Shown: positions 2,594 to 22,500 of the stretch, in pieces | How the letters are laid out: each line of letters starts with the position of its first letter | How positions within the stretch are numbered: position 1 is the first letter of the stretch | NCBI GenBank assembly: GCA_000092065.1 | Contig: CP000595.1 | DNA from: Ostreococcus lucimarinus | Taxonomy: Eukaryota | Length of the DNA: 64,000 nt | Strand: one strand, 5' to 3' | Notes under the pieces: model-generated | Databases searched by the model: none | Seen by the model: only the letters and a program-made list of their open reading frames with translations | What the model was told of the DNA's origin: nothing | Program-made: the position numbers and the translations under genes

Positions 2594-3634
2594 TCAGCGC
2601 AGTGGCGTTTTAGAACCAGAAACTTTTTGCACATCTATATACTTGAGGTTTCCTATTTGGATGTTTCCTGCGGACTGCCAATCCCACTCATACAAAAGAA
2701 TGCTAAGTACAGACTGATCGTATCGGTGCACAATATATTCTGTTGAAGGTGGGCCTTTGCGTGGTTTCGTCAGCTTACGACTGGATCCTGGAGGTGCCAT
2801 GCAAGAAAGACAGTTATGCACGCCGCATGCTATCCAAGGCGCGAGAACTGTCTTGTAAACATCCGACTGGAGGTTCGCTATCCAATATGTGGCAGCTATC
2901 TCCGTAAAGTTTTTGAATTTCGTACGGTCGACGTTCAGATAAGCATAAGTGGCGGGGTGTGTGTTCACCCCCATACCCAAAGCACCCAAACGACCGGCGA
3001 ATCCCACACCATCTTCGAGCACGTGAGACACCCACGTTTCCGGGTTTCCAAGGAAACGTGTTGAAGAATCTGCCCACATGAAAGCATCCAGGTCGTCAAA
3101 CACACGTAAAAACATCTGCACTACACGTGGTTTAAAACAGTACGTGTCTAAACGCTCTTGCTCTTCTATCACTAACGTCTGCAACTTGATCTGCGCCTTT
3201 ACTTTTTTCAATTGTAGCTTGTACTTTTGCAATAACCTGAACTCCGCATGCGCCATATCCAACGCGTCAACCTTGTGCATGTAGTATACAGAAACTATCC
3301 CACCATACCGGCTGTCTGCTAGAGAGCGCAGCATATCGAGATTTTCAGCGGCGTGGTTCGATGAGCACGCTGTCACTATTGCAAATCTGACTGTCTTGGC
3401 GCGAGTCCTGTGGCCGAGTCCTAAAATAAATTGAGGCCTGTGAAAAGCCAAATATCCCAACAATAACAGGAGCAGCGTGTTCAAGTGCGTACACGCCCTG
3501 AATTTCCACCGGTCTGCTTGGTCGTCGCCCCTGAATTTCCACCAGTCTGCTTGGTCGTCGCCCGCGAACCCGGCTTTCACCATCCCCGACCCGTTATCGC
3601 ACACCAGCGCGGACAGTTCGCCCTCATCCGCCAT
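2594..3634 (-). CDS. Chimeric ORF: actin codons 1-27 fused in frame to a low-GC type II membrane glycosyltransferase-like protein (GT-A/DxD type, GT34/GT77-like; family uncertain)
   Basis: A 346-aa ORF begins with the actin ATG ([27 protein letters not shown], 1 nt different from the intact actin copy). It diverges into QADWWKF..., has a hydrophobic signal-anchor [14 protein letters not shown], then a conserved-looking domain ([13 protein letters not shown] ... [29 protein letters not shown]). The body sits in a ~45% GC island with flanks at ~65%. Confidence 0.5.
3495..3560. repeat. 33-bp tandem duplication (x2) at the actin-fragment/glycosyltransferase junction
   Basis: cctgaatttccacc[g/a]gtctgcttggtcgtcgcc appears twice in tandem. 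On the minus strand it encodes the repeated [11 protein letters not shown] / [11 protein letters not shown]. Confidence 0.8.
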
Positions 3635-4410
3635 CTTTCTTTCGTTCCTACGAATTCCGTCCGCGTCCTCGTCGCGCGTCGTCAGTCCTCGCTCGCGCGT
3701 CCTCGTCGCCGATCTCGTCCCGTCGCGTCGCGTCGCGTCGCGTCCTCGTCCCCGACGCGACTCGCGCCGCTCTCTCGCGCGCGTCTCGCGCGCGTCTCGC
3801 GGTTCGTTCGTCCACCCCGAGCCGTCGCGCCCGATCGATCGTTCGCGAATCGTTCGCGAGATCGCGAATCGTTCGCGAATCGTTCGCGAATCGAATCAAT
3901 CAATCAACGACTCGCTTTGAAATCGTTCGCGCATCCGTCGCCCGTTCGCGTTTTGTCGTTCGCGTCGCGCCCGCGCGCGCGACGTCGAATCCTCGGGACG
4001 TCGCGCGCGCCTCGGTCGCGTCGCGTCGCGTCGGTCGCCTCGCCTCGCCTCGCGCGCACCGTCGTCCGTCGTCCGCCGCGATCTCGCGGTCGTCGCGAAC
4101 GCAATCAATCGCGACGTCGCGGGCGCGGCGTCGCGGCGTCGCGGGCCGGCGGGGTGTTGTACGATATATAAAATACGAAACAATCGCGTATACATTACAC
4201 CCCAAACTACCGATATGTCGATCAATCACACGACCCAGACCCCCCGCGATCGCCGTTCGCCCCGATCGCGATCGCGCGGCGCCGGACGCGCGCCGCGCGA
4301 TCTCTCGTCTATATAAAATACGAATCAATCACGTATACATTATCCCCCAAACCACCCATATATCGATCAATCACACGACCCAGATGTGCCCCGATCGCGA
4401 TCGCGCGGCG
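3551..4410. repeat. Actin 5' coding end + 5'UTR/promoter block, copy 2
   Basis: Near-identical to 1372-2213, including the microsatellites and TATA-like elements, with small indels and an extra internal copy of the cgatcaatcacacgacccag unit. Confidence 0.85.
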
Positions 4411-4721
4411 CCGGCGCGTCGCCGACGGTTTCCGCGGCGTCGGCGCTTTTTACGCGCCGCGCGACGCGCGCGCGTCGCGAGATCGCGCCGCGGTGGCGTC
4501 GCGCGGCGTTCGAGCGGACGCGGTCACGCGCGCGCGTCGTACACACATACGCGCCGACGCCACAACGCGCACCGCGCACGCACAACGCGCGCATCGTGTC
4601 GCCGTCGACGCGAAAAAGCGTCGTAGGTTTGTCGGATAACGTGACGCGGATCGCGCGCGAGCGCGACGTCGGATAACGAGACGGCTCGCGAGGGGGCGCG
4701 CGTCGCGAGATCGCGCGCGCG

Positions 4722-7127
4722 ATGGCGATGACGCGCGCGATGGCGCACACCGCGTCGCACACCGCGTCGCATACGCGTCCGACGTCGCGAACGGGACGCG
4801 GGACGCGACGCGCGCGCGCGCGCGCGATTCGGAACGACGAGGCGAGCGACGCCGAGGCGGGCGTCGAACGAGGCGAAGACGTCGAGCGGGCGACGCGGGC
4901 GACGCACGCGGTGTACGTGGAGAATCCCGACGGTGGGACGAACACGTGCGTGCGCGTGGTGGGGCCGAATCGCCGGGGGGGGTTGGCGAAAATAATCGCC
5001 GCGTTGACGAATTACGGGTTGGACGTGCAGAGCTCGTTCACGCGGACGACGGCGAACGGGAGCAGCGTGGACGACGTCTTTTACGTCACGTGGGATCCGA
5101 GAGAGGCGGGGAAGTCATTCGATGAATCTCACGCGCGATTGGCGTCGCAGTTGGAGGAAGATCGATTCGAGGATTTGAAAAGGTTCATCGTCGACGCCAT
5201 GACGCCGACGGAGACGCGCGAGCGGTACACGTCGCGCATGCCGAAGATTTACGGCATCGCCGCCGAATCTGAAGTTTTGGCGATGAAGCGACGATTGGAT
5301 GACGCGATCGACCCGTCGAATCAGGAGGAGTCGAAGATCGCGCGCGACCCCGTCTTCATGGCGTCGCAGCTCGAGTTCGTCGCCGCCGAGTTGGCGAGCG
5401 CCACGGCGCGCCTGGTGCAAATCGACCGCGTCTACGCCAAGGTTGAATCTTGCGGGGTGGAGTATTTATGGGAACTCGAAGGCTCCGATGAAGAAGTCGT
5501 GAACGACGAGTGCGTCGTCATCGAAGCCGAGCGCTCCGACGCTCGCGCGATGTTTGAACGCAAGCTCGCCGCCATGGAGGCGGCGCTCGCCGCTCGCGAC
5601 CGAGCGCGAAGAGGGCTCACGACATCATCGGACACCGCTTCGGGTGTCGCGGTGGTGCAACGGACCGATGAAGCGACGTCCACGCTCGCGAAATCACGCC
5701 AGCCTCTGAACGAAAACAACACCACCAAGGCGAAGCTTTCCAAGCTTTCCACGGATATGGCGCCGCAGACGCCGTTCGCCTCGCCCCTCAGTCGCCCTCT
5801 CCCTTCGACACCGTGCGGAAACGGTCGGGAACTCATCCTTCAAGGCTTCAATTGGGAGTCGTGCAACGAAAAAGCGAACAACGATCGATCTTGGTATCAA
5901 CTGTTGAATGAAAAGGTTCCCGAAATCGCCGCCGCGGGCTTCACCTCCGTTTGGATGCCCCCGCCGACGAAATCCGTGAGCAAGCAAGGGTACCTTCCCA
6001 CCGACTTGTACAACTTGAACTCCTTCTACGGCTCAGAAGATGAGCTGAGATCATGCGTCGCTCGCATGCGCGAGTACAACATCACGCCGGTGGCGGATAT
6101 CGTCATCAATCACCGCTGCGCCGAGGCGCAGGACGACGCGGGGCGATGGAACAAGTACACGGGGAAGATTGATTGGGATGCGCGCGCGATCACGTGCGAG
6201 AACCCGCAATTCGGGGGACAGGGATCGCAAAGCACGGGCGAGGACTATCTTCCCGCGCCGAACATCGATCACACTCAACAGTTCGTCCGCAAGGATTTGA
6301 AGGAGTGGCTTTCGTGGATGCGCGACGACGTCGGATTCCGCGGCTGGCGATTTGATTTCGTCAAAGGCTACAGCGGCGTGTTCACTGGAGAGTACGTCGA
6401 AGAAACGCGTCCTTTCTTATCGTTCGGCGAATTTTGGGACGAATGCTCATACCGTGACGGGGTTTTGGAATACAATCAAGACGCGCACCGTCAACGAACG
6501 TGCGACTGGGTGGATTCCACCGGCGGTAACACGGCGGCGTTTGATTTCACCACCAAGGGTATTCTGCAAGAAGCAGTCGCACGCACCGAGTACTGGCGAT
6601 TGATCGACACGAAAGGGCGCCCACCGGGTTTTTGCGGCATGTGGCCCTCTCGCGCCGTTACGTTCATCGAAAATCACGACACGGGCTCGACGCTCCAGCA
6701 CTGGCCGTTTCCGAGGGATAAAATATTGCAAGGATACTGCTACATCCTCACCCATCCGGGAACACCCACGGTGTTCTACGACCACTGGGTCGACCCGAAG
6801 TGGTCGGAGGCCATCGGCGTGATGTTGGATATTCGCAAGCGCACCGGGCTTTCGTCCAACGCCGCCGCCGTGCACATCGAGCGCGCCACCGCCGGTCTTT
6901 ACGCCGCGCACATCGGGCACGCGCAAGAGATGTACACCGAAGGGTTGAGCATGGACGTCGATGTCAAACGTCCGTCGATCTGCATGAAGCTCGGCGTCGA
7001 AGACTGGTCGCCAAACGCGGCTAAAGTTGGAAACTTGTCGTGGAAGTGCACGGCGAGCGGCGATGGATGGGCGATTTGGGAAGACAAGAACCATCTTGAA
7101 GACGAAGAAATCAGCAAAGCGAGGTGA
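4722..7127 (+). CDS. AMY: Alpha-amylase (GH13, plant AMY3-like) with an N-terminal ACT-like regulatory domain
   Basis: Catalytic-domain motifs are present: GFNWES, DIVINHR, GWRFDFVKGY, FIENHDTGS. The N-terminal ~250 aa carry an ACT-like fold (VVGPNRRGGLAKIIAALTNYGLDVQSS). Confidence 0.9.
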   Translation: MAMTRAMAHTASHTASHTRPTSRTGRGTRRARARAIRNDEASDAEAGVERGEDVERATRATHAVYVENPDGGTNTCVRVVGPNRRGGLAKIIAALTNYGLDVQSSFTRTTANGSSVDDVFYVTWDPREAGKSFDESHARLASQLEEDRFEDLKRFIVDAMTPTETRERYTSRMPKIYGIAAESEVLAMKRRLDDAIDPSNQEESKIARDPVFMASQLEFVAAELASATARLVQIDRVYAKVESCGVEYLWELEGSDEEVVNDECVVIEAERSDARAMFERKLAAMEAALAARDRARRGLTTSSDTASGVAVVQRTDEATSTLAKSRQPLNENNTTKAKLSKLSTDMAPQTPFASPLSRPLPSTPCGNGRELILQGFNWESCNEKANNDRSWYQLLNEKVPEIAAAGFTSVWMPPPTKSVSKQGYLPTDLYNLNSFYGSEDELRSCVARMREYNITPVADIVINHRCAEAQDDAGRWNKYTGKIDWDARAITCENPQFGGQGSQSTGEDYLPAPNIDHTQQFVRKDLKEWLSWMRDDVGFRGWRFDFVKGYSGVFTGEYVEETRPFLSFGEFWDECSYRDGVLEYNQDAHRQRTCDWVDSTGGNTAAFDFTTKGILQEAVARTEYWRLIDTKGRPPGFCGMWPSRAVTFIENHDTGSTLQHWPFPRDKILQGYCYILTHPGTPTVFYDHWVDPKWSEAIGVMLDIRKRTGLSSNAAAVHIERATAGLYAAHIGHAQEMYTEGLSMDVDVKRPSICMKLGVEDWSPNAAKVGNLSWKCTASGDGWAIWEDKNHLEDEEISKAR

Positions 7128-7385: not shown

Positions 7386-8537
7386 TTAGTAGAAGCCGAA
7401 GCCCTTGGCCGCGTTGGTGAGGACGTTGGAGTGAACCGGGTCCGCAACGTGGGATTGCCAGTTGGCGATCGGGCCTTCTTGGGTGGCGAGCGCTTGGAAG
7501 ATGCAGCCCAACCACGCGAACATGGACAAGCGGCAGTGCTTGAGCTCCTTGATCTTGAGTTCTTCAAGGTCGCCAGACTCGGCGAGGCCGAGCGGGTCGA
7601 AGCGTCCACCCGGGTTGACGTCACCGACGGTGAGGCCATCATCGAACGGAGAGTCGGAGATACCGGTACGGTACGCTTCCGCGGCGCCGACGAGAACGAT
7701 CTCGATGATGAGAACGTTCCAGAAGGACGGGTAGCCAGAGCCTTCCGGCGCGAGCGGGGCGACGGCGCCCGGGAACTTGTCCGCAACGGCGGTGCAGTCA
7801 TCCGGGGTGCACAAGGTACCCGCGGTGAACCACGGGATACCGGTGCCGTTTTCGGCGGCCCACGCGCCGGTGACACCGAGCATCGCCCAGCGGCCGTGGA
7901 TCACTTCACGCTCGGCGTTCTTTTCGTCGCCGAACGGGATGATCGGGGATTCGCCACCGCCCGGGTAGGTACCGAATTCCGGGTAGATGTCAGCCTTGAC
8001 CGTCGTGGAGACAGACTTGGCCTGCGATCGTTAAAAAGCGCGCGAAGCGAACGTTCGTCAGTCACCGATCGCGCGCGCGTCGTTTCACGCCGCCGTCCCG
8101 CCTCTCCGCGCGTCGCGCGCGAACCGCGAACCCAATCCACCGTTCACGACTCAGCGCCGACCCCCTCCCGAATCCCCGCGCGATAAAGATACGATACGGA
8201 AACCGCCACGAATCGCGTATCGCGCGCGTCTCGCGCGTCTCTCGCCCGCGCCCTCCCCCCCGCGCGGCGCCTCCGATTCAAATCATTTCTCTCCGCGCGT
8301 TCGCGTCGTCCCAGCGCCGTCGCCTCGCCGCGCGCGCGTCCCGCGTCGCCGCGCCCCGTCGCGCGCGATCCCATCCCATCGCGCGCGTCCCATCGCGTCC
8401 CGCGTCGCCGCGTCTCCGCGCGCCGCGTCCCCGCGTCTCCGCGCGTCGCTCGAAGGCTAAAAAATACGCACTTGGATCTTGGTCGCCTTGAAGGCGGCGA
8501 CGCGGCCGACGAAGGAGGAAGCGAGAAGGGCAGACAT
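7386..8537 (-). CDS. LHC: Light-harvesting chlorophyll a/b-binding protein (LHC), two exons: 8537..8472 and 8021..7386. Intron 8471..8022 with GTGCGT donor and CAG acceptor.
   Basis: Exon 2 encodes EREVIHGRWAMLG (helix 1) and EELKIKELKHCRLSMFAWLG (helix 3). Exon 1 encodes MSALLASSFVGRVAAFKATKIQ, followed by a canonical donor. Exon 2 starts right after a CAG and an in-frame TAA. Both splice sites are frame-anchored to the ORF track. Confidence 0.85.
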
Positions 8538-8991: not shown

Positions 8992-11604
8992 ATGACGCGC
9001 GAGGGCGACGACGGCGCGGCGGCGTGGCCGCGACCGAGCGCGACGTTGGTCGCGGTGGGATGCGCGGCGCTGGCGCTGGCGTGCCTGGGCGACGGGACGA
9101 GGGTGGCGACGAGCGGATTGCTGGGAGGGGCGTCGACGACGGCGCGCGGCGACGCGGGACGGGAGCGCGTGCTCGACGACGTGCCGTTCGAGGATGATCA
9201 CGTGCGACTGGTGGTGCCGAGAGTGGAGCGAGATATCGCGGCGGAGGAACTGCGGGGGGAGGTGTCGTGGACGCGAGCGGCGACGACGGGGGTGTTCGAC
9301 GCGAGGGCGAACGGCGGCGCGAGCGCGACCAACGGAACGGAGTATCGTCCCGTGGCGACGTACGCCGCGCTCGGGCGCCGACGGCATCACGGCAGAAAAC
9401 ATCATCGATACGATGATGACGAGGAAGAACTGGCGTACGAGACGAAAGGGGACGATTTCGAGCTTCCCGAGTTGTCCTCGGTCGAGCCCAAGGATTCGAA
9501 AAAGAAGGAGACGGAGACGTTCGGCGGCGAGCTCACCGCGAGTGAGGTCGAGTCCATCTTGGACAAGCTCCGAGCGCAGTCGCAAGCTTTAGAAACGGGA
9601 TCAGACGCGACGAGTAGTTTAGGGGCAAAAGAAGCGTCGACGCCCGGCGAGCAGATTGACGAGCTCGAGAAGACGCTTGCGCGGGGCTCGTCTAATGCCG
9701 CGAACGAGATTAAGACTAAGAAGAGCTCGCTCTTGAGCTCGATCGAAGAAACGTCGAAAGATTTGGTTGAAGAGTTAGATTCGGTACCGGCACAAACGTA
9801 CAAGCTCACGTTTCCGTCGCCCAAAGCTCCGTCGAAAGATGACAAGGCGCGCGACGAGACGTCCACCGCTGACGCGGATGCGCAACCTGAAGCAAACTCT
9901 GAAATTTCGAGACAGATTTCGAGCATGGCAAAGGGCGAATCGGATGCTGGAGATGCCGCGTTCCTCAAATCGTTGATCGAAGATCCGGAAACATCGGAGT
10001 TGATGTCGGAATCGATGTCTTTATCGTCGGCCCAGCCTACGTCGAAAGCGCCGACGCCGTCGAACACGCCGCTAACGCCGTCGCCGGCGACGGATGCGAC
10101 GGTTTTGGGTGATAATGGGACGACGACCTCGCCTGTTGACATACCGACCAAGCCAGCCATTCTGCCAGACGTTGTGCGCGCGACTGGCGACGTTGCTAAG
10201 AATACGACAACGTACGACGACGCGTCAGATGGAAGCTCCCACGAAGATTTGGAGTACGGCGAAGGCTCTGAAGTCGCGCCGAACTCAAAACACGACGACG
10301 CAGAATCGAAATTGACAGAAACGGCGCAGACGGGAGAACCTGCGATCGAGTACAAGAAGAAAATCGATACGACAAACGACATAAACCTATACGAGAACGC
10401 GTTGCGAGGCGAGGCGCACCCTGAGCGATCTTGGGCACAGAAGGGTCTGAAACCCGCGGACGAGAGCGTTCTGACGGAAGAAAACATCAAGCAGAACGAA
10501 TTAGCGGAAGACCAGTCGCTCACAGTTGATTTTCTCAATCGTTTCCCGGTACAATTGCCTAAATCGGAGCGAGAGACACAAAATTGGAGGCGTTATCAAA
10601 AATTGCGAACGCGCGCCGGCGCGAAGTCGGCGGAGGAGCAGTCGGAAGAGGACCGAGAAACGGTGGAGAGAGTCACCGCCGCCGCGGTTGAGCTCGTTCG
10701 CGCGGAAAAGAAGGGCGAAGATGACCGTAAAGAAAAATCGTGGAGAGATGTGGTGTTTTCTCTGTACTTCATGGGCCCGCTTGGTTTCGTAGCATTCGTC
10801 AGCGTGTTTTACGCCGTCGTCGTGCTCGTGGTGAGGAAAAGTAAAAAGTCGCCCTCGAAGACCGGTACCGATCCCGATGACGACGAGGCTTTTGATAAGT
10901 TTCTTCGCGACGTGACTGTGACAAAGTCAAAGACTCACACGAGACGAGAGAGCGACGGTGGATTGGCGTCCTTCCTGGGCTTTGTCAAGAAGCGAGTCGA
11001 CGACGTGGATGAGTTTGCAAAGTACGCTAGCGCTCGATTACAGCGTACCGTGGACGAAGATGGTGAGGATGATGTCGACGAAGAAAAGGTGTGGCATCAA
11101 TCCACGGTAAGCGCATCGGGTTTGGAATCGACCTCCATCTCTGGAACCTCGACGCCACGCGCGTCGACGTCGGCGTCGTCGCCGAATCGAGTCAATCACG
11201 ATCCCGATCGCGTCTTGGATAAAGCGGTGGTGAATCGAAGTTTGCAGTCGATTCGTACGCGTGAGCTTTCATCGCCCGAACGCATACGAAACGTGCGCTC
11301 GCGTGCGGGGACGGCGGATCCGTCGCCGGCGACGACTCCTCGCGAAACATCGTATCTAACGCAACAAACCATCGATAGACTCGAGCCGGAACGACCGAAG
11401 CAACGGCAGCCGCAGTCGGATCAGGAACCACCGCAACGTGAACAGCGTGAGCGGCAATCGTCGCGAGCGAAGGCGAACAAACCGTCACCGCAAGTGTATC
11501 GCTCGCTCTTCCCTAGGGAACAAACCGAGCCGCCTCCCGCGCCGCCGCGCCGCCCCGGAGACGCGCCGCAAATAGTGCGTTCGATGACGACTAAATTCTA
11601 CTAG
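8992..11604 (+). CDS. Hypothetical acidic Ser/Thr/Glu-rich membrane protein
   Basis: 870-aa ORF with an N-terminal hydrophobic signal-like segment (LVAVGCAALALACLG). It has a long low-complexity acidic body whose codon usage is not simply GC-driven (K/E/D-rich). One clear TM helix (VFSLYFMGPLGFVAFVSVFYAVVVLVV). I do not recognise a conserved domain. Confidence 0.5.
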   Translation: MTREGDDGAAAWPRPSATLVAVGCAALALACLGDGTRVATSGLLGGASTTARGDAGRERVLDDVPFEDDHVRLVVPRVERDIAAEELRGEVSWTRAATTGVFDARANGGASATNGTEYRPVATYAALGRRRHHGRKHHRYDDDEEELAYETKGDDFELPELSSVEPKDSKKKETETFGGELTASEVESILDKLRAQSQALETGSDATSSLGAKEASTPGEQIDELEKTLARGSSNAANEIKTKKSSLLSSIEETSKDLVEELDSVPAQTYKLTFPSPKAPSKDDKARDETSTADADAQPEANSEISRQISSMAKGESDAGDAAFLKSLIEDPETSELMSESMSLSSAQPTSKAPTPSNTPLTPSPATDATVLGDNGTTTSPVDIPTKPAILPDVVRATGDVAKNTTTYDDASDGSSHEDLEYGEGSEVAPNSKHDDAESKLTETAQTGEPAIEYKKKIDTTNDINLYENALRGEAHPERSWAQKGLKPADESVLTEENIKQNELAEDQSLTVDFLNRFPVQLPKSERETQNWRRYQKLRTRAGAKSAEEQSEEDRETVERVTAAAVELVRAEKKGEDDRKEKSWRDVVFSLYFMGPLGFVAFVSVFYAVVVLVVRKSKKSPSKTGTDPDDDEAFDKFLRDVTVTKSKTHTRRESDGGLASFLGFVKKRVDDVDEFAKYASARLQRTVDEDGEDDVDEEKVWHQSTVSASGLESTSISGTSTPRASTSASSPNRVNHDPDRVLDKAVVNRSLQSIRTRELSSPERIRNVRSRAGTADPSPATTPRETSYLTQQTIDRLEPERPKQRQPQSDQEPPQREQRERQSSRAKANKPSPQVYRSLFPREQTEPPPAPPRRPGDAPQIVRSMTTKFY

Positions 11605-12064
11605 ATTAGATTACGTTGGAATTACACTTTCCTCTCGATTATATATACGCGCTCGCGCGCTCACCGTCGCGCCCGCCGCACCGGTCGGTCGCGCGCGCGG
11701 CGACCGACCGACTTATCCGTTTATCGCGACGCCGATTTTCGCCGCGCGCGACCAACGACTGCGCATTGTGAGCGCGCGAAGCGGTAACGCGACGCATCGC
11801 GAGGTGCCCTCGGCGGCGGCGGAAACCCGGAAACCCTCGACTGCCGGGTGTGTTCGGTTGCGCGCGCGACTTTGACGCGCGCGCGCTCGGACGCACGCGC
11901 GCTCGATCGAACGCGTCGACGAGACGCACCGCGAGAGCGCACGCTTCGCGCGCGAACGCGTCGACGAGCGCGCGCGCGCGCGCTTCATCGCGACGCGGGC
12001 GAACGGCGAGCGACGCATCGGACACCCGGGAGGATAAAGCGCGCGTCGAGCGCGGACGGCGAAC

Positions 12065-13648
12065 ATGGGACTGTCTCGAGGGGCGCGCACGGGGTCGTAC
12101 GTCGATCTGTCGAAGGAAGCGACGCGTCCGGGGCAGACGGGGATCTTGGATAACGGAGACGCGGCGTCCGATGGGACGTTCAAGTCGAAGATCATCTGCA
12201 CGCTCGGACCGGTGTCGCGAACGGTGGAGATTTTGGAGGAAATGTTGAGGGCGGGGATGTCGGTCGCGCGGTTCAACTTTTCGCACGGCTCGCACGAGTA
12301 TCACCAGGAGACGTTGGATAATTTGCGCGCGGCGTGCGCGAACACGGGCATTCATTGCGGGGTGCTGCTCGATACCAAGGGGCCGGAGATTCGCACCGGG
12401 ATGCTCGCGTGCGGGGGACCGGTGATGCTCGAAGCGGGGAAGGAGATCGTGCTCACCACGGACTACGAGTTCAAGGGTAGCGCGGAAAAGCTCGCGGTGT
12501 CGTATCCGGACTTGGCCAAGGACGTCAAGCCCGGTTCGAAGATTTTGTGCGCCGACGGTTCCGTCACCTTCACCGTGCTCGAGTGCGACGTCGCCAAGGG
12601 CGAGGTGCGATGCCGCCTCGAAAACAGCGCCAAGCTCGGCGAGCGCAAGAACATGAACTTGCCGGGCGTCAACGTGAACTTGCCCACGATCACCGAGAAG
12701 GATCGCCTCGATTTGATCGAGTGGGGGGTGAAGAACAACGTCGACTTCATCGCCGCCTCGTTCGTTCGCAAGGGAAGCGACGTCGAGTACATTCGCTCCG
12801 TTCTCGGCGACTTCGCGAATAAAGTTTCCATCATCTCCAAGGTTGAGAACATGGAGGGCTTAGATAACTATGACGATATTGTCGAAAAGTCCGACGGCGT
12901 CATGGTCGCTCGCGGCGACTTGGGTATGGAGATTCGCATGGAACAAATATTCTTGGCGCAAAAGCGCATGATCAAGCGGTGCAACTACGCGGGCAAGCCC
13001 GTAGTGACGGCGACGCAAATGCTGGAGTCCATGACGGGTGCCCCGCGCCCGACGCGCGCGGAGGCCACGGACGTGGCCAACGCTATTCTCGACGGTACCG
13101 ACGCCGTGATGCTCTCCGGGGAAACCGCCGCGGGCAACTACGCCATCGACGCGGTCAAGTGCATGGCGTCCATCTGTCGCGAAGCCGAAGCGTACGTGGA
13201 CAACGTGGCGAGCTATCACCAAATCCTCGAGCAACAGCCGATTCCTATGGGCGTCGAAGAGTCTTTGGCTTCGTCCGCCGTTCGTACCGCGCAAAAGGTG
13301 CAAGCCTCCATCATTGTATGCCTCTCTCGCACCGGCACGACTTCTCGTTTGATCGCCAAGTACCGCCCGGATGCGCCAATCTTATCTGTGTGCTACGCTG
13401 AAGAAGCCGATCCGGCGAGTGTTGCGCGCCGCTCGCTCGTCAGCCGTGGCATTATCCCGGTTATCCAACCGCCGGAGTGGGGTCAAGGCAACGCCATCGT
13501 CCCGCAAGAAGTCATGCGTAACGCCATCCTCTACGCCCGTGATACGCTGAAGATCGTCAAGCCTGGCGACGCTGTCGTCGGCGTGCACCGTCTCTTGGGC
13601 GAAGCCATCTTGAAGGTCGTCGTCTGCCCAGAAGGTAACGCCTTCTAA
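12065..13648 (+). CDS. PK: Pyruvate kinase (paralog A)
   Basis: 527 aa with the pyruvate kinase hallmarks [36 protein letters not shown] and [11 protein letters not shown]. Confidence 0.95.
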   Translation: MGLSRGARTGSYVDLSKEATRPGQTGILDNGDAASDGTFKSKIICTLGPVSRTVEILEEMLRAGMSVARFNFSHGSHEYHQETLDNLRAACANTGIHCGVLLDTKGPEIRTGMLACGGPVMLEAGKEIVLTTDYEFKGSAEKLAVSYPDLAKDVKPGSKILCADGSVTFTVLECDVAKGEVRCRLENSAKLGERKNMNLPGVNVNLPTITEKDRLDLIEWGVKNNVDFIAASFVRKGSDVEYIRSVLGDFANKVSIISKVENMEGLDNYDDIVEKSDGVMVARGDLGMEIRMEQIFLAQKRMIKRCNYAGKPVVTATQMLESMTGAPRPTRAEATDVANAILDGTDAVMLSGETAAGNYAIDAVKCMASICREAEAYVDNVASYHQILEQQPIPMGVEESLASSAVRTAQKVQASIIVCLSRTGTTSRLIAKYRPDAPILSVCYAEEADPASVARRSLVSRGIIPVIQPPEWGQGNAIVPQEVMRNAILYARDTLKIVKPGDAVVGVHRLLGEAILKVVVCPEGNAF

Positions 13649-13813
13649 GGACTCAAAGAATCGTTCTTTTCCATCACACGTATTGTCGGCAGCACGCTCT
13701 GCACACACGCGCTCTGCACCCATCGCGCGGTAGGAAGTAATCTCGCCTTATCCGGCACATCACAATATTACACAAAACTATTTTCTCCAAAAGCTACCGC
13801 TCGACTGCTGGCG

Positions 13814-15055
13814 TTAGTCGTCTTCGTCAAAGACAGATTCCATCATGAGCTTGAACTCGTTCATGCTCTCGACGCCAGCGATGCTCGGTGTGGAGTTGTC
13901 GCCGCGCATCATGGGCGAAACAATCGGCGGTGCGCGCGGATGCAAGTCGTCACCCGCGACGGCGTTGGACCAGGAATCAATCTGATCGTCTTCGTTCGCG
14001 AGCTCGAGGATGGTCGCCGCGTCTTCCCTGGTGTACTGGTGCGTGAATCGTCTCTCTTCGTCGCCCGAATCGCCATCTTCGACGTCTTCCACGACAACCT
14101 CATCTTCTAATCGCGCAGTGGCGACGACATCCTTGTACAAATTCGTCGGAGCTCGAGTATACTCGATCGGTTTACTCTTCACTTTCTCCTCCAAATCCGC
14201 CACGAGCTTGAGCGTTGTCTCGTGCGTCAAAGACGCGTCGACGGGCAATCCCAAAACCCGCGCCTTTGGTGGCGAAACCGGCGTCGGCGGCGCGCTCGAT
14301 CGCGGTCGTAATGCCTGTTCACGTCCGACGCCCATAAATGCGGCATACGGGTCCCACGGCGCGTCATCTCCGCCCGCGGGTTTCGGCGACGTCATCGCCG
14401 GCTCGAAATTCGCCTTCGCCTCCGGGCTGTCTTCGACGGGCATGGGTGTCAGGCTTAACGCTACGCGCGGTGTCGGCGTCGATACCTCCGCCTCATCACT
14501 TCTCCTCGTCTCTATCGTGTTCAACGGCGGCGAAGGTGCGCGCTCTACGACGCCCGGAAGCGCCGCAGCGCTCGCCGCCTTCGTCGGCGTCTCCACGACG
14601 CTCTGCAACGCCTCGTCCACGACGCGTTCACCCAACAGCTCGCGAAGCTCGTCCTCAAGCGCGCGCAAGCGTTCCAACGCGCTCCCCTTGGACGGTTCCC
14701 ACGGTCGCCACGGTCGCTCACTGTCTCGCGCGTCTCTCTCTCGCGCGTCCCGCTCGGCGTCCCGCTCGGGCGCCGCCCCGCCGTCCTCTGCGCGACCCGA
14801 ACCCGTCGTCTCCCCCTCCAGCTGCGCGAGCACGCGCGGTAAATCACGCATGAGCACTCGCGCTTGCGCGAGATCGATCTCGTCCAGTTCGTCGTCGTCG
14901 AACGCGTCCGACGCGACGTCTGGAATACCGCTCGAACGTCGATTCGCGTCGTCGCCGGCTCCGCGCTCGTCGCGCATGATCTCGAGCGCGCGCGCGCGCA
15001 GGTCGACGTCGACGTCGACGTCCGTCGGCGCGCCGCGCGCGGCGAGGGGCGACAT
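13814..15055 (-). CDS. Hypothetical proline/acidic-rich protein
   Basis: 413-aa ORF with mixed composition and an acidic C-terminus. It overlaps a Ser-rich plus-strand ORF (14010..15086) that I consider the artefact. No recognisable domain. Confidence 0.35.
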   Translation of the reverse strand: MSPLAARGAPTDVDVDVDLRARALEIMRDERGAGDDANRRSSGIPDVASDAFDDDELDEIDLAQARVLMRDLPRVLAQLEGETTGSGRAEDGGAAPERDAERDARERDARDSERPWRPWEPSKGSALERLRALEDELRELLGERVVDEALQSVVETPTKAASAAALPGVVERAPSPPLNTIETRRSDEAEVSTPTPRVALSLTPMPVEDSPEAKANFEPAMTSPKPAGGDDAPWDPYAAFMGVGREQALRPRSSAPPTPVSPPKARVLGLPVDASLTHETTLKLVADLEEKVKSKPIEYTRAPTNLYKDVVATARLEDEVVVEDVEDGDSGDEERRFTHQYTREDAATILELANEDDQIDSWSNAVAGDDLHPRAPPIVSPMMRGDNSTPSIAGVESMNEFKLMMESVFDEDD

Positions 15056-15257
15056 CGACGCGCGATGGGCGCGAGGCGACGACTGAAGCGGCGGTTCGTT
15101 CGCGCACCAACCAACGTTTATTTATTTCTGCAACGAGCGAGACGCGCGGAACGGGCGGCTGCGGACGCGCACGCGCGAGGCGTCGCGCCGCCGGATGACG
15201 AGGCGAAAGTTGACGACTATCGCGATGTACAACACGGCAGGACGCGCGATGCGTCGG

Positions 15258-16580
15258 CTAAATACCATCTAAATCGTCGAAGATGTCGAATTCTTCCTTT
15301 TCCTCGTCGCGTTCGCGAGGATCGAGTCGACGCTCGCGGACGAAGAACGCGGAGGCGAATCGACCTTTGCGGTAGCGTCGAGCGACGACGCGACGCTCGG
15401 TATCGTCTAACATCGCGCTCGGTGGGCCTTGGTCGTAGCGACCGCACTCGACGACGAGTTGGTCGTCGACGGATTCGACGAGGACCCAAATGTGGTTGGG
15501 AAGGAACACCAACGGCGAGTTCCCGCCGAGGACGTACTCACCGCCCATGGCCCAGCTCGATGGGGACTTGACCGCCCACCACGGAACCACAAGCATGCCC
15601 TCGGGATCACGCGCCGCCGCCTCGATTTCCTCTTTCGCTCGTCGCTCCTCTGCTTCCCTCTCCGCCTCCGCGGCGCGCGCGAGCGCTGGATCGTTTGGTT
15701 TTTGTTCCGCAAGCTTTTGCGCTGGACCGACGTCTATCGGCGAAGACGTCGACGCATCCTCACCACTTGTTTCGCGCTCTTCGGGTACATCTGCTAGCGC
15801 TTCGAGCGCTATGAATGTCACCCCGCTCGTCGCTCGCCATTCGCCGACGCTCACGGCGTCTTCGGTTAAAATATCCCCCGTCGCCGGACTCGCCGCCCGC
15901 GTCTCGCATTCGCTCGCCGTCTCGTGAGTGATTTCGATTCCACACAACTCCCAGTTCCGCCTCTGTCCCGGTGCCGCGCGCACGCGAAGCGAGATCCGCC
16001 GCCGCTCTCTCGGCGCCTCCTCTTCGGCAAACGCAAACGCGAACCCAACCTCCGCGCCCTCGACGCACTCTGGAAGCGTCTTCGGCCCATCGCAATAACA
16101 ACCTTGCACGATGAACATTTTAGCCATCTGTCCGCCCGCGCACACGTCGTGCGATTCCGCGAACGCAACGTCATTCTTCCCGTATTCGCACCCCGCTTCC
16201 GGGTACAACTTCTTCGTCTCCAATCGCAACCCATCGCCATCGCTCGTCTTGCCTCCGCTCGTCACGATTTGCCACTCCATGACGTCCACACCGTACTCCT
16301 TGAACGCATCGGGGACGTAATTACTCGGCAGCGGCACCGCGGCACCCGTGCGCGGATCGAACGTCGCGCTCGCTCCGGCGTATTCGCCCGCGTGCGCGGC
16401 GACGAAGTCATCCCAGACGTCCGAGGGCGGCCAATCGCGATTGGCTTCGAGCGCTCTCGACGCGACGTGCGCGCAATGACGCGCGTGAATTTTGAGTCGC
16501 GCCGAGGTCGACGTCGAGCGCGCGCACGCGCCGTGGCGATGCGTTTTCTGTACGCTCCAAAAAGTACACTGGGACGTCAT
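15258..16580 (-). CDS. Conserved hypothetical protein
   Basis: ATG at 16580 (MTSQCTFWSVQ...) inside a longer track ORF. Non-repetitive composition (YVPDAFKEYGVDVMEWQIVTSGGKTSDGDGLRLETKKLYPEAG...). Family not recognised. Confidence 0.4.
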   Translation of the reverse strand: MTSQCTFWSVQKTHRHGACARSTSTSARLKIHARHCAHVASRALEANRDWPPSDVWDDFVAAHAGEYAGASATFDPRTGAAVPLPSNYVPDAFKEYGVDVMEWQIVTSGGKTSDGDGLRLETKKLYPEAGCEYGKNDVAFAESHDVCAGGQMAKMFIVQGCYCDGPKTLPECVEGAEVGFAFAFAEEEAPRERRRISLRVRAAPGQRRNWELCGIEITHETASECETRAASPATGDILTEDAVSVGEWRATSGVTFIALEALADVPEERETSGEDASTSSPIDVGPAQKLAEQKPNDPALARAAEAEREAEERRAKEEIEAAARDPEGMLVVPWWAVKSPSSWAMGGEYVLGGNSPLVFLPNHIWVLVESVDDQLVVECGRYDQGPPSAMLDDTERRVVARRYRKGRFASAFFVRERRLDPRERDEEKEEFDIFDDLDGI

Positions 16581-16811
16581 TGCGCGCCTCTCGCGTCGTC
16601 GATGCGACGCAAAAGACGCCGAAAGCGCGCGTGTCGAATGACACACCGCGCGTTCCGTCAACAAAACTCGCTTGCGTCGTAAACGTCGCGTTTTCGCGTC
16701 GACGCGGGGTGAAATGGCGAACACATTGGGACAGCAGGTTGTTAACATTTGGCGAGTCAAAACTTGTGACGGTCGAACTCGTCGCACATCGAGGCGGGCG
16801 ACGACGCGAGA

Positions 16812-18116
16812 ATGCGCGCGCGGCGTAAACGGTTCCAAGTAATTGTCAGCGCGTGTTACGGCTCGCGCGGGGACGTGATGCCGTGTTTGACGATCGCCGC
16901 CGCGTTGGCGCGGCGGCTCGAAGGCCAAGCAACGGTGGTCGCCATGGCGAATCCAGTGTTTGAGAATGCCGTCGCGGCGAACGTGCGGTTCATCGGTGTG
17001 GGGAGTCGAGATGAATACGAGTGCGTGCAACGCGACCACGCTTCTAGGCGAGACGCGCGCGTGGTGGTGCGGTATTGGTTGGATCATTTGGAGACGCACG
17101 CGGAGCGTATTCTTGAGGCGCGCGCAGACGCTGGAAGGACGATTGTGTTGGCTCACACGCTCGATTTGGCGGTGCGGTGCGTGGACGAGCGCGCTAACGA
17201 CGAATGTTTAACGTGTTACTCCCTGGTGCTCTCGCCCGCGCTGTTGAGAACGCCAAATCAAACGATTCCGCCGTTCGCGGGTGAGCGCCTTCGGTGTTTC
17301 GGGCGATCGCGTTGGGCGATGCGCGCAGCGGATTGCCTAGTCGATATCGCGTTCGCACCGCAGCTCAACGCGTTTCGCGCTTCGCTCGGGTCGACAAAAC
17401 CAGTCAAAAGAGTGTTTGACGAGTGGTTTTTATGTAAAGCCGGCGTGTTCGCGATGTATCCCGAATATTTCGAGCGAGCCGCAGACGCCGGCTCGAGAAA
17501 AGTATTCCAAATAGACTTTCCCCAAGAAGGCGGCGACGTGAACGTGACTGGCTTGAATGCGATTCGCGTCGCTCGAGAGTTCATCGATCGCGATGACGCG
17601 CCGACCGTCGTTTTCGTATCAGCCAGTGGAAATCCACCCTTTGCGTCGCAATTTTTCGCCACCGCCGTGAAGGCGATGCGACGGCTGGCGGGCGCGAAAG
17701 CCATCTTGCTGACGCGTCATCGCGATCGGATCGGCGAGTTACCCGAAAACGCGATCCACATCGACTTTCTCCCTTTGCACCTCTGTCGCGACGCTGGCTT
17801 GAAAATCGCTGCGCTCGTTCATCACGGGACCATCGGGTGCTCGGCGACGGCGTTGCGAAGCGCATGGCCGCAAGTCGTCGTTCCAGCGGCGTTCGACCAG
17901 CCGTACAACGCCGCGCTCCTCGAAGCGATGGGTGCGGCGCAAATTATCCACATGACACGTCTCACGCGCACGCGGCTTGTGAAAGCGCTTAAAATTGTGT
18001 TCAAGGAAGAGGCCCGCGCGCCGGAAACCGCGCCGCGACGTCGAGCGAACGACGCGTCGTCACCTCAAGCGCGCGTCGCGGAAATCATCGCTAAGGAATT
18101 ATTGCAATACGGCTAA
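16812..18116 (+). CDS. UDP-glycosyltransferase, GT1 family (sterol/MGT-like)
   Basis: C-terminal nucleotide-sugar binding signature HHGTIGCSATALRSAWPQVVVPAAFDQPYNA. N-terminal GT28-like domain. Confidence 0.7.
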   Translation: MRARRKRFQVIVSACYGSRGDVMPCLTIAAALARRLEGQATVVAMANPVFENAVAANVRFIGVGSRDEYECVQRDHASRRDARVVVRYWLDHLETHAERILEARADAGRTIVLAHTLDLAVRCVDERANDECLTCYSLVLSPALLRTPNQTIPPFAGERLRCFGRSRWAMRAADCLVDIAFAPQLNAFRASLGSTKPVKRVFDEWFLCKAGVFAMYPEYFERAADAGSRKVFQIDFPQEGGDVNVTGLNAIRVAREFIDRDDAPTVVFVSASGNPPFASQFFATAVKAMRRLAGAKAILLTRHRDRIGELPENAIHIDFLPLHLCRDAGLKIAALVHHGTIGCSATALRSAWPQVVVPAAFDQPYNAALLEAMGAAQIIHMTRLTRTRLVKALKIVFKEEARAPETAPRRRANDASSPQARVAEIIAKELLQYG

Positions 18117-18124
18117 ATATACAT

Positions 18125-19237
18125 CTACTCTACGATCACGTCGCTGTCGCTGTCGTGCATATCGTCGTCGCTATCATCGCTCACGTCGCTCACGTCCCTG
18201 GCCCACGATTGCACTCTCGCGCGTTCGACTTCTCTTCTCTCCGCCGACCGCAAGCGTCGGATCTTTTCAGTCGACGTCACGACTTCGCCGTCTCGCTCGC
18301 AATCACGCGAGGCGTGGACTCGAGGCGTCGTCGTTTCCGTCGCGGGTTCTCTCGCCGCGCCGGCGCCGATCGCCGCGCCCCAGGTGAGACGTTTTCCGCA
18401 CCGCGCGCACGGCCCGTGGTCCGGGATCAATCGACTCGACCACGACAACGCCTCGTCCCCGGCGCGATCGAAAAAATGACGCGCCAAGCACACCGGATGA
18501 AAACGCGCGCCGCACGTCGCGCACCCGACGGCGCGATCGCTTCGAATCGCCTTCCCGCACGCGTCCACGCCGCACTTCAGCGCTTCCCCGCCCGGCCGAG
18601 ACGCCGACGCCGACGCGCTCGGCGTCCCACTCACACCGACGTCCATCACCCGCGCTCGCATCGCATCATCCATCTCCTCATCCATCTCCTCCTCCTCCGC
18701 GTTCGCGCTCGCCGCGACGATCGCATCCATCTCCCGCGTCGTCGTTCGTCTCCGCTCCACGTGCGCCGGAATCGCGTCCGCGTACTTTTCAATCAGCCTC
18801 TCCCCGACCTCGCTCATGCAGTGCACCGTCAGCGGCATGTGTTTCCACGGCGCCGTGTTCAACATCCCACACATCACCATCGCCTTCTTCCCCGGCGCGC
18901 TCGTTTTATCGCTCACTCCGCGCTCCCTCGCCAACGTTCGCGTCGCTCGACAGCTCGCCGGTCGCTGCCACGCCCACTCAAACTGCAGCGCCTGCACCTT
19001 GTCGCTGAATCCCGAGACGACGAGCACCATGTCGCACGGTCGCAGTCGCATCGTGTACTTGGCCCCGTTCGCGATCGCGCCGTTGTGCTGCGCGAGTCGT
19101 CGCGGCGGGTTCGTCGTGAATCCGACGTACGACTTTCCCTTCTTGCTCGGATCGAGGCTCACGACGAGGTAACACGCGTAGAGCGCGCGCGCGGGCGCGC
19201 GGCGCGTCGGCGCGTCGCGCGTCGGGGGCGCGCGCAT
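18125..19237 (-). CDS. SLX1: Structure-specific endonuclease subunit SLX1 (GIY-YIG nuclease + C-terminal zinc finger)
   Basis: GIY-YIG motif YACYLVVSLDPSKKGKSYVGFTTNPPRRLAQHNG. Cysteine-rich C-terminus: CGVDACGKAIRSDRAVGCATCGARFHPVCL ... CARCGKRLTW. Confidence 0.8.
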   Translation of the reverse strand: MRAPPTRDAPTRRAPARALYACYLVVSLDPSKKGKSYVGFTTNPPRRLAQHNGAIANGAKYTMRLRPCDMVLVVSGFSDKVQALQFEWAWQRPASCRATRTLARERGVSDKTSAPGKKAMVMCGMLNTAPWKHMPLTVHCMSEVGERLIEKYADAIPAHVERRRTTTREMDAIVAASANAEEEEMDEEMDDAMRARVMDVGVSGTPSASASASRPGGEALKCGVDACGKAIRSDRAVGCATCGARFHPVCLARHFFDRAGDEALSWSSRLIPDHGPCARCGKRLTWGAAIGAGAAREPATETTTPRVHASRDCERDGEVVTSTEKIRRLRSAERREVERARVQSWARDVSDVSDDSDDDMHDSDSDVIVE

Positions 19238-19526
19238 CGCGCGGCGCGCGCGACGGCGACGGCGACGCGCGATCGATTGTGACGGTTGGTGTCTGCGGTT
19301 CTTTTTTTCGCCGTGTGTAGTGGATTAATGATGGTATCCAGAATATAGGCCGTTTCGAGGAGTGTGTGCGGAAGGACACCGGACGCTCTTAATTTTTTAA
19401 GAGGTCGGCGTTGTTCACTTAAGCCTACTGCGTCGCGTTCGTCGCCTCGCGAAGGATGAATGATGAATGATGAATGTGGCGTTACAAGGCGCGGCGATGG
19501 CGAATAAAGGTGACGGCGGCGCGCTG

Positions 19527-22500
19527 CTACGCGATGGCGTCGTCGTCGTCGCGCGCGTTCAAGGCTTGCGCGATGAGACGCGCGTTTTCGGCGTTGTGAA
19601 TGGCGAGCGAACCGGTCGCCGGCGCGGCGCTCGGCGGGCGGCCGACGAATCGAACGCGTCTGTTTTCTTCGTCGACAGACGCGCGGACGCGGGTGGCGCG
19701 CTCGGTTGTGGCGATGCGCGGAGCGACGAAAGACCAGTAACCCATGTTTTTCGGCTCCTCTTGCGCCCAGACGAGATGGGCGTTGGGATAGCGCTGTAAT
19801 CGACGCGCCAGGGCGTCGTGAGGAAACGGGAACAGCTGCTCCAATCGAATGATGGCGACGTCGTCGATCTTCTTCGCCGCGCGTTGCCTGGCGAGCGAGT
19901 AATAAATCTTGCCCGTGCACAAAATCACGCGTTTGATCTCGCCGTTCGGTTTGAGCGGAATGTTTTCGTGACGCGTGACGTCGTCTCCCGCGTCGCCGTC
20001 GGCGATGACGCGCCGGAACGAAGACTTCGGCGCAAAGTCCATGAGCTTGGACGCGCAGTGCTTGTGATGCAGAAGCGTTTTGGGCGTGAGCACGACAAGT
20101 GGTTTTGAGTGCGGAGAGCTTATTTGCCGCCGAAGCGCGTGGAAGTATTGCGCCGGCGTCGATGGCTGCACCATCACGAAGTTGGCCTGCGCCATGACAG
20201 AGGCTCGCGCGCGGCGGCGCATGTAACGAATCCAGTCTCGCCTGTGCACCTTGCCGCTCGACCCGAAATACGCTTCGACGTCGTCCCACATCCCACTCTC
20301 TGCGGCATCAGCGCCGTTCGCATCTTGGCCTTGGCCGAACGTGTCCATCTTAGATTTACTCTCGGCGTCGTTTCGCGTCAAGATGGAGCGAATGTTTTCC
20401 AATTCCACGAAATCATTCTTGTCCGGCCCGAGCGCGTCGAATGTGCGTTGGGCGAACGCGAGATCGGCCGCGGCGTTCCCAGGGAGCGAGTCGCAGTCGT
20501 CGTTCGCCGCCGCGAGCCAACGTTCGGGGCGTGCTGTGGAGTGATCCGGGCCTTGACCCTCATACCCGTGCGGTAAGAGTAAAACGATGTCGCTTCGCTG
20601 ACCCCAACGTTCTTCGCCCGAGCAAATATATTGGTCGATGATGACCTGCGCGTTGTTTGCGAAGTCGCCAAACTGTGCTTCCCAAAGCACGAGCGCTTCT
20701 TTACCCATCTCGGATGCGAAACCGTACTCGAATCCCAACACCGCGTGTTCGCTCAGTGGGGAATTCGCAGCGGTGAATTTGTCTTGCGGACCCATGTTCA
20801 TATTGTCCAGCGGCACGTGTTCATGCGACGTGCGATTGCAATACACCGCGGCGTGACGTTGATTGAAGGTTCCTCGAACGCAATCTTGCCCACTCAGTCG
20901 AACGTGCGCGTGGGAGCCGATCGGGGGATCTTCGCCTTCGCCCGTCCACCACGGGACGTGATTTTCCCATCGCTTTTCGCATGGGTGCATGAGAAGCGAC
21001 GCAAAAGCGAGCGCTTCGGCGGTCGCCCAATCGATTTGCCCTGCACCTACCTGGACATCGGGCTCCATGGCGCGTCGACGCGCTTCGAACATCGCCTTGA
21101 CGTGTGGATGAAGCATAAAATCAGTGTCCTCGGGAGGCGTAGTGATGGAGTGGCAAATCTTCTGCAGCGCATCAATCGGCATCCCGGTGCCCGCCGCCGT
21201 CACGCGAGCTTCGCGACCGGATACGCCTGTAGAGACCGCTCGCGTCGACGCGAGCCACGATTCGGTAGTTCGAATGAAGTCTTGGTGCGTGGCACCTTCC
21301 GCGGCGAACTCCTTCTCCATCCCTCGACGCAAGTCGTCGAGCTCATCCTTGCTCAGGATGCCCTCCGCCACGCACGCGTTGGCGTAATTCTCCGCCACTC
21401 TCGGGGTGGCTTCAATTCTTCGAGACATGAGCGGAAGTGTGATGGATGGATCATCGAGCTCGTTGTGACCGAATCGACGGTAGCACACGTAGTTGACGAC
21501 GACGTCGGATTGAAATTCAGCTCGATAGTCCGCAGCCAAGCGCATGGCGGAGACGACGGCGTCAGGGTCGTCGCCGTTGACGTGAATGATCGGCGCGCCG
21601 TAGGCTTTCGCGACGTCACTCGGGTGTGGACTCGAGCGCGCGCGTCGAGGCACAGTGGTGAAACCGATCTGGTTGTTCACCACCACGTGCACCGTGCCCC
21701 CGGTGGTGTAATCGGGCAAGTCTTGCAACTGCATCACCTCGCCGTTTTGTCCGAGCCCACAAAATGACGCGTCGCCGTGCAACAGCAAGGGCAGAACGTG
21801 CGCCCGCGCGCTCGCACCTTCGGTTTGTGAATCACGCTTGAACTGTTTCGCGCGAACCACGCCGCTGACGACGGCGTTGACCATTTCCAAATGACTCGGA
21901 TTCGGCACCAGAGTCAGCGCCACTTGCTTTGCTCCTCGCTCGACGTCGACGTCCACAACGGCTCGCGCGCCGAGATGGTATCGAACGTCTCCGACTAGAA
22001 ATGATGACCTATCGTCTACGATTTCCGCGCATATCGCTCCCAAGGGTTTGCCGAACACGTTGTGTAACACGTTCAAACGCCCCCGATGCGCCATGCCTAG
22101 AACGACGCACCCCACGTCTCGCTCCGCGGAACGCTCGACGAACGCTTGTAAACCCGGCACCAAGCTCTCCGCGCCCTCCAACCCGAATCGCTTCGCCGAA
22201 GGGAACTTTTCCGCGAGAAACACCTCCAATCGATCCGCCGTCAACAACCGCTCGAGCGTTCGTCTTCGCTCCGTCGCCGAAGCTTCTCGAGGGCCGCACT
22301 CGACTTGTTCCCTCAACCATCGCTTTCTCTCCTTGCTCGTCAAATGATTACACTCCACGCTCATCGTGCCGCAATACACATCTCTCAACCTTTCGAATAA
22401 CTCATCGACGCGCCACGCCGTCTTCGCGCGCGCGCCGCTCGGATCCAGCGTCGCCGCGTCCTCGCCCAGATGAAACCTCTTCTCCGGCGCGCGACGCGCG

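Follow-up and report, generated by a model that had tools for sequence, protein, structure and literature searches.

Interlocus gene conversion is known to cause concerted evolution in gene families with two copies, as in the human fetal globin pair HBG1/HBG2 and in duplicated genes of yeast. Conversion from arm to arm is known in the palindromes of the human Y chromosome and in plastid inverted repeats, the latter occurring as flip-flop isomers. In this study, a stretch of 64,000 nucleotides (nt) of the Ostreococcus lucimarinus genome (GenBank assembly GCA_000092065.1, contig CP000595.1), here called the window, was analysed for two linked pyruvate kinase (PK) genes, PK-A and PK-B, which have a near-identical core of about 1 kb in common. 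The PK pair resembles HBG1/HBG2 and the yeast pairs in that the paralogs predate the species yet are more alike within a species than the orthologs are between species. It also resembles them in having a discrete, sharp-edged tract with normally diverging flanks and a mosaic of small unconverted islands. As in the Y palindromes and plastid repeats, there are two inverted copies per molecule, about 13 kb apart, which appear to be kept 98.5-100% identical by intramolecular recombination. The comparisons below make it very probable that the PK-A and PK-B core has been homogenised by interlocus gene conversion that is recurrent and confined to the catalytic barrel.

The pyruvate kinase pair and its common core

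When PK-A and PK-B were paired base by base, the core gave an alignment of 1020 nt with no gaps and 15 mismatches (98.5% identity), and the longest perfect runs were 354 and 172 nt. Upstream of 12178 the same pairing revealed no similarity between A and B, the mismatch level being that of unrelated sequences. Downstream, from 13198, mismatches were only a few bases apart, and the 445 nt that follow had an identity of 64.9%. A repeat finder reported one long inverted repeat, 12178-13371 vs 27032-28225, at 95%. Identity fell sharply at both ends of the core, as had been claimed in an earlier reading of the window (the original prediction). The core bounds given there, 12182-13190 and about 27216-28221, were essentially right, as were the figures of about 99% nucleotide identity and about six amino acid differences. 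The six differences counted within amino acids (aa) 39-378 were I96V, H97D, L214H, Y269F, D270N, and Y308L. An identity of about 60% had been given for both ends of the proteins; this held for the C-terminal parts (87/144, 60%), but the N-termini were hardly alignable (10/38).

The comparison of synonymous divergence inside and outside the tract, which the original prediction had proposed, gave a clear contrast. Between PK-A and PK-B, third codon positions differed at 9/340 in the core and at 72/144 in the C-terminal part (Fisher p = 5e-35). The synonymous divergence (dS, Nei-Gojobori) was 0.040 in the core against 1.09 in the C-terminal part, where the nonsynonymous divergence (dN) was 0.32. 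The mismatches within the core were clustered: 9 of the 14 gaps between them were 12 nt or shorter, and none of 20,000 permutations was as extreme. Such clustered blocks indicate several overlapping conversion events, which would be of differing length. At the 15 differing sites, the G or C was in A at 7 and in B at 7, which gave no signal of direction or of GC bias.

The T at 12708 (L214, codon 214) was seen only in PK-A of strain CCE9901; PK-B and 5/5 environmental A-gene contigs have A at this position (His), and His was also found at PK-A codon 214 in the protein sequences of other species, which were read by eye. L214 of CCE9901 PK-A is either a strain-private mutation or a sequencing error. 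The open reading frames (ORFs) 12547-12822 and 27581-27856, whose identical peptides had been described as antisense, lie on the same strand as their own PK gene, in a different frame. They match because of the nucleotide identity in a GC-rich genome (window GC 62.7%) and are a trivial by-product.

PK-A and PK-B were predicted to be full-length eukaryotic cytosolic-type pyruvate kinases (EC 2.7.1.40) by domain order and similarity. PF00224 was followed by PF02887 in both proteins: at aa 40-364 (2.3e-138) and aa 399-508 (1.1e-17) in PK-A, and at aa 87-411 (6.5e-139) and aa 446-559 (1.7e-16) in PK-B. Solved pyruvate kinases matched at about 1e-133, and the best PDB match was 7z4r_A (E = 2.5e-133, over aa 39-512). 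The PK-A ORF sequence was the same as XP_001421558.1 of O. lucimarinus CCE9901 (P0230) in a comparison made by eye only. The mechanical ORF of PK-B extends to 29277; its start was set at 28479, as in the independently called gene P0012. The two genes lie tail to tail on one chromosome, with 13.1 kb between their stop codons and 13,660 nt between the repeat arms, consistent with the opposite orientation and the distance of about 14 kb originally described. The positions of the features are listed in Table 1.

Table 1. PK features of the window, with the corresponding tracts and genes of other lineages
Feature	Position or extent	Strand	Remarks
PK-A coding sequence	12065-13648	+	uninterrupted ORF, 527 aa
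A-specific N-terminal segment, 38 codons	12065-12177	+	lacks nucleotide homology to B; ortholog of the A N-terminus of O. tauri (14 paralog-pattern vs 3 species-pattern sites)
Putative converted tract, PK-A arm	12178-13197	+	catalytic A/B-domain barrel and 14 linker codons, aa 39-378
Old island inside the tract	12350-12353 (partner 28050-28053)	+	I96-H97 in A, V-D in B; holds 2/3 paralog-pattern core sites
A-specific C-terminal part (linker end and PK_C alpha/beta domain)	13198-13648	+	64.9% nt identity to B; groups with A-type C-terminal parts of other species
Segment between the genes, 13.1 kb	13649-26760		order and orientation as in O. tauri (blastn collinearity, gene lists)
B-specific C-terminal part (PK_C domain)	26761-27205	-	dN 0.13 to O. 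tauri B, 0.32-0.42 to each of the A copies; placed with all other B-type parts by a 99% bootstrap split
Putative converted tract, PK-B arm	27206-28225	-	reverse complement of the PK-A arm; position a pairs with 28225-(a-12178)
B-specific N-terminal extension, 85 codons	28226-28479	-	
PK-B coding sequence	26761-28479	-	572 aa; start at 28479 from called gene P0012 and the gene call on L002
S1 tract			ends at about aa 398
S2 tract ('_pilon' chromosome-size contigs)	1154 nt, 5-6 mismatches		ends after ..LIITLSRT (about aa 423)
S3 tract	1018 nt, 0 mismatches		ends after ..EAYVDN
O. mediterraneus-like tract	962 nt, 24 mismatches		ends after ..NYALD (about aa 362)
Bathycoccus PK genes	10001-11989 and 18072-19646 of L012 (OZ116961.1)		also on L010

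The pair in O. tauri, other Ostreococcus lineages and Bathycoccus

Independent homogenisation in a sister species, a check suggested with the original prediction, was found in O. tauri. The core dS was 0.040 between the two O. lucimarinus copies (OlA-OlB) and 0.077 between the two O. tauri copies (OtA-OtB), and it was 0.67-0.79 for all cross-species pairs. Third positions of the core differed at 107/340 between species vs 9/340 between paralogs (Fisher p = 4e-26). Within the tract, paralogs inside a species were more alike than orthologs across species.

Outside the tract, the relationship was different. The C-terminal dN was 0.25 for A-A and 0.13 for B-B, and 0.32-0.42 for all A-B pairs; the C-terminal dS was saturated (>1), at 1.27 for B-B and 1.55 for A-A. 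Parsimony-informative sites among the four genes told the same: 124 of the 127 core sites followed the species pattern and 3 the paralog pattern, the N-terminus had 3 species-pattern and 14 paralog-pattern sites, and the C-terminal part had 10 and 43, respectively. The N- and C-terminal parts combined had 57 paralog-pattern and 13 species-pattern sites. The switch from species to paralog pattern fell between 13189 and 13201 in both species. Orthologs group together outside the tract, and the duplication thus predates speciation.

The surroundings of the pair are conserved as well. In O. tauri RCC4221, A (71082-72665, +) and B (84660-86375, -) lie tail to tail on chromosome 16, 12.0 kb apart. 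O. tauri and the window have a GST gene and a chlorophyll a/b-binding protein gene upstream of A and DapB upstream of B in common. The segment between A and B includes the genes for SLX1, 2-oxoglutarate dehydrogenase (OGDH) E1, ribosomal protein L14, a Rce1-like protein, and an AP sigma subunit in both. The window was collinear with O. tauri 61-96 kb by blastn, with the middle segment in the same orientation.

In each of the four genes (OlA, OlB, OtA, and OtB), the GC content at third codon positions (GC3) of the tract exceeded that of the C-terminal part (0.78-0.84 vs 0.64-0.74). GC-biased gene conversion has been reported in O. tauri (PMC5498103). The higher GC3 of the tract is compatible with such a process; codon usage could also account for it.

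Seven Ostreococcus lineages were obtained from protein searches: O. lucimarinus, O. tauri, O. mediterraneus, and four uncultured lineages labelled S1-S4 here. A-type and B-type genes were recovered in all seven. In neighbor-joining trees of the core, A paired with B inside each of the 7 lineages (bootstrap 76-100). In the neighbor-joining tree of the C-terminal part, the B-type parts were all on one side of a 99% split. Because the core trees followed the lineages and the B-type C-terminal parts were separated by the 99% split, the trees place the duplication before the origin of the genus and indicate that the cores were homogenised separately in each lineage examined.

Nucleotide tracts were measured on contigs carrying or representing both copies. 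The tract started at the KSKI(I/V)C codons throughout the Ostreococcus lineages and in Bathycoccus, and this 5' border never shifted. The 3' border varied between about aa 362 and 423, a range of about 60 codons around the junction of the A and C domains. In O. tauri, a B-specific patch at about aa 88-125 was less homogenised (86-93% identity). Its motif GVDC..MLEGGGP was present in the B copies of O. tauri, S1, and S4, and O. lucimarinus B keeps 'VD' only. The island at 12350-12353 of the window is the remnant of this patch, which is still large in O. tauri and S1.

Bathycoccus prasinos has two linked PK genes, PK1 and PK2, in direct orientation and about 6 kb apart. The common core of PK1 and PK2 is 1037 nt long with 2 mismatches. 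It starts at KSKIVC, at the same codons as in Ostreococcus, and ends 8 codons past the O. lucimarinus border. An extra perfect island of 52 nt lies deeper in the C-domain. The neighbours are partly those of Ostreococcus: GST upstream of PK1; L14, Rce1, and AP sigma before PK2; and OGDH and SLX1 after PK2. Since the Bathycoccus pair are direct repeats, inverted orientation is not required for homogenisation. The conversion that had been proposed between inverted repeats was supported, but the inverted orientation in that proposal was unnecessary.

A single inversion linking the direct layout of Bathycoccus to the inverted layout of Ostreococcus was considered and rejected, as none explains both. 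PK1 of Bathycoccus has an intron of 432 nt after codon 26, which ends about 22 nt before the identity starts. A Micromonas-like contig of 1.42 Mb (L022, 8097-14374) keeps the context of the B locus, in the order DapB, PK, AP sigma, Rce1-like, and L14. A second PK gene was not found within 10 kb of the PK gene on this contig.

Probable gene conversion and alternative explanations

The proposed mechanism is recurrent non-reciprocal homologous recombination, by which about 1 kb would be copied from one old paralog onto the other. This would probably occur during break repair, with one copy serving as the template for the other over a distance of 13 kb within a single haploid chromosome. The copied stretch would comprise the catalytic barrel and its lid domain, starting at (F)KSKIIC and reaching the linker that precedes the C-domain. 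Extension in the 5' direction would be blocked, as the N-terminal extensions have no homology in common. In the 3' direction, copying would stop in or just past the linker between the A and C domains. The last 100-150 codons, which form the C-domain, would therefore persist as two separate lineages under purifying selection, because conversion stops at or just after this linker. The C-domain of pyruvate kinase generally carries the allosteric site and one tetramer interface.

The original claim of ectopic gene conversion was borne out by the sharp borders, the dS contrast, O. tauri, the seven Ostreococcus lineages, and Bathycoccus. Its recurrence was supported by the patchy mosaic, the lineage-specific B patch (O. 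tauri and S1), and the differing 3' ends. These algae are haploid, with a mutation rate (mu) of 4.4-9.8e-10 per site per generation (PMC5455958). With d = mu/c and d = 0.04-0.08, the conversion rate c would be of the order of 1e-8 per site per generation.

Several points weigh against this reading or limit its reach. Conversion is deduced from a comparative pattern rather than from a directly observed event. As dS is saturated in the C-terminal parts, their orthology was judged from dN, site patterns, and protein trees. The sequences of S1, S3, S4, and the O. mediterraneus-like pair are short-read metagenome contigs, whose cores are perhaps partly consensus. The identification of Bathycoccus PK2 as the ortholog of Ostreococcus B draws on common neighbours only, and the C-terminal part of PK2 groups by genus. 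In environmental O. lucimarinus-like contigs, the 15 A/B sites occurred in reshuffled blocks, with no private single-nucleotide polymorphisms. Short-read assemblers can switch copies, and the reshuffled sites could reflect such switching, not segregating conversion tracts. That conversion is ongoing within the present population, as first suggested, is less secure than that it is recurrent and recent.

The 3' limit of the tract has two candidate causes, selection for distinct C-domains and heteroduplex rejection at the divergence cliff, which are roughly equally likely and not mutually exclusive. A purely passive limit, in which conversion cannot enter sequence of about 65% identity and the split of the C-domains is a frozen accident, falls only slightly short of an even chance. 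It agrees with the 5' limit, which is the exact end of homology in all lineages. The soft 3' border, spread over about 60 codons, and the isolated 52-nt island of Bathycoccus are also what homology-dependent termination predicts. It is opposed by the purifying selection on both types of C-domain (dN 0.13 and dS 1.27, saturated, for B-B; 0.25 and 1.55 for A-A) and by the retention of the B type through the whole genus. Moreover, the last 100 codons or so still differ in every isolate or '_pilon' lineage sampled, though the S2 tract reaches aa 423.

It was also considered whether the 1-kb core is a recombination switch, at which crossovers invert the 13-kb segment and swap the C-domains between promoters and N-termini. 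If true, the switch would give wild populations four PK isoforms (A-N/A-C, B-N/B-C, A-N/B-C, and B-N/A-C). Contigs with one or the other of the two reciprocal junctions and matching flanks were present in several lineages and many samples, and the four N/C combinations were seen in every lineage. In S1, recombinant contigs (L004 and L005) ran from DapB through B-N..A-C into genes normally downstream of A, and ended where the second copy would begin. In S2, L006-L009 ran from the gene upstream of A through A-N..B-C to AP sigma, Rce1, and L14, and L100 was the reciprocal. The recombinant junctions were confined to short-read assemblies (megahit, SPAdes, Logan, and JGI), which are able to generate flips artificially. 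All four combinations were likewise found in O. mediterraneus MMETSP transcripts 8105-8110 from one culture (P0193, P0194, P0208, P0209, and P0210). In S2, the only crossover markers (positions 184 and 207) lie ahead of about 950 nt without a difference and cannot locate a crossover.

Both orientations of the segment were sought in repeat-spanning assemblies, namely isolates and '_pilon' contigs, and one orientation only was found. The '_pilon' contigs are chromosome-size S2 contigs from different samples and are probably long-read based; 12 carried a parental A locus and 3 a parental B locus. The recombinant junction contigs were rejected as evidence of inversion, being short-read only and resembling the chimeras from a clonal-culture transcriptome, with the '_pilon' contigs and the references all parental. 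The inversion polymorphism of the intervening segment that had been expected is unsupported, the reference genomes being collinear and the 15 '_pilon' contigs parental. A real inversion is thus unsupported, and the recombination switch is unlikely.

The common core drives short-read metagenome and transcriptome assemblers to chimeric PK genes and apparent inversions. Many PK entries in protein databases mix the N- and C-termini of the paralogs (clusters of P0004, P0005, P0010, and P0146). Most of these mixed entries are probably assembler chimeras across the common core, and they could mislead gene-family or population analyses.

A single recent event in the O. lucimarinus lineage, either a partial duplication or one conversion with nothing recurrent, is very unlikely. 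For the window by itself, the 98.5% identity would be explained by one event dating back about 1.5e7 generations (d/2mu). It does not account for the separately homogenised cores of O. tauri, five further Ostreococcus lineages, and Bathycoccus. Nor does it account for the clustered core differences, which point to several overlapping events, or for tract ends that vary among lineages from about aa 362 to 423.

Extreme constraint on protein, codon usage, or mRNA structure, or a mutation cold spot, could be invoked for the core identity without any exchange, as the barrel is the most conserved part of pyruvate kinases and the core GC3 is high (0.84); this has hardly any chance of being correct, because constraint cannot make same-species paralogs closer than cross-species orthologs, and the same core diverges between species in both dS and third positions, as given above. 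An assembly artefact, in which reads of two more divergent genes were collapsed or mis-joined, is just as improbable: repeats of this length (about 1 kb) are classically error-prone in assembly and short-read assemblies of these genes do give chimeras, but the window copies differ at 15 core sites and are not collapsed, an independent Tara contig (L002) matches the B copy at 99.4%, JGI and GenBank contigs (L023 and L024) match the A copy at 99.2-99.7%, and the same architecture recurs in O. tauri RCC4221, chromosome-scale records of B. prasinos, and the 15 S2 '_pilon' contigs. Neither the uniform divergence nor the assembly collapse that would have spoken against gene conversion was seen, the latter being excluded by the 15 differences and the independent assemblies of several species.

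Other features of the window and comparison with known systems

Three further features of the window were recorded. Positions 1371-4411 hold a tandem duplication (repeat families D5-D10; period about 2.18 kb, identity 97-99%), which includes four copies of an AT-rich motif (TATATAAAATACGAAnCAATCnCGTATAC). In O. tauri, nothing corresponding to the stretch of about 3.4 kb (1451-4909) that holds this tandem duplication lies between the flanking genes. Within the segment between the PK genes, an ORF of 332 aa on the minus strand (23441-24439) contains 81-nt (27-aa) tandem repeats at 23714-24037, of the type ..ECLKYAHEHGCPWDE.TC..AA..GHL... This ORF looks like a lineage-specific gene, because the stretch 22724-24354 had no match in the collinear O. 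tauri region. An imperfect palindrome with overlapping arms of 73 nt, 75% complementary, lies at 28734-28869, in the GC-rich spacer that separates PK-B from the divergently transcribed DapB. It may be just low-complexity CG-rich sequence.

The closest work on the same organisms concerns genome-wide GC-biased conversion in O. tauri (PMC5498103; PMC5635611). The PK case resembles it in the organisms, in the basic recombination machinery, and in the higher GC3 of the tract. It differs in that those studies concern allelic recombination and base composition, and the PK case is an exchange between paralogs. In a full-text literature search, no paper joined Ostreococcus, pyruvate kinase, and gene conversion, and the papers on conversion in Ostreococcus dealt with the GC-biased allelic process. 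The process itself is textbook knowledge, and the PK case is apparently undescribed.

The PK pair could be of use in several ways. Haploid, compact, and paralog-poor genomes with measured mutation rates offer a way to estimate how often ectopic conversion occurs, and how long its tracts are, in a marine picoalga. The pair also permits testing whether selection or loss of homology sets the border of a tract.

Compared with the Y palindromes and plastid repeats, homogenisation of the PK pair is confined to 1 kb inside coding sequences and does not extend over whole arms. The Bathycoccus PK pair, in addition, is homogenised as direct repeats. Unlike in plastid repeats, flip-flop isomers of the PK segment have no support, the isolate and '_pilon' assemblies all being in one orientation. 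Compared with HBG1/HBG2 and the yeast pairs, the PK tract corresponds to a whole structural module, the barrel plus its lid, and excludes the C-domain. Its 5' border lies at the same codons in seven Ostreococcus lineages and in Bathycoccus, and its host is haploid with very few paralogs. The C-domains have remained distinct throughout the radiation of the genus, and its sister genus Bathycoccus shows the same pattern. The PK pair can be regarded as an unusually clean natural case of domain-limited concerted evolution, in which one re-synchronised catalytic engine is combined with two distinct, probably regulatory, C-terminal domains.

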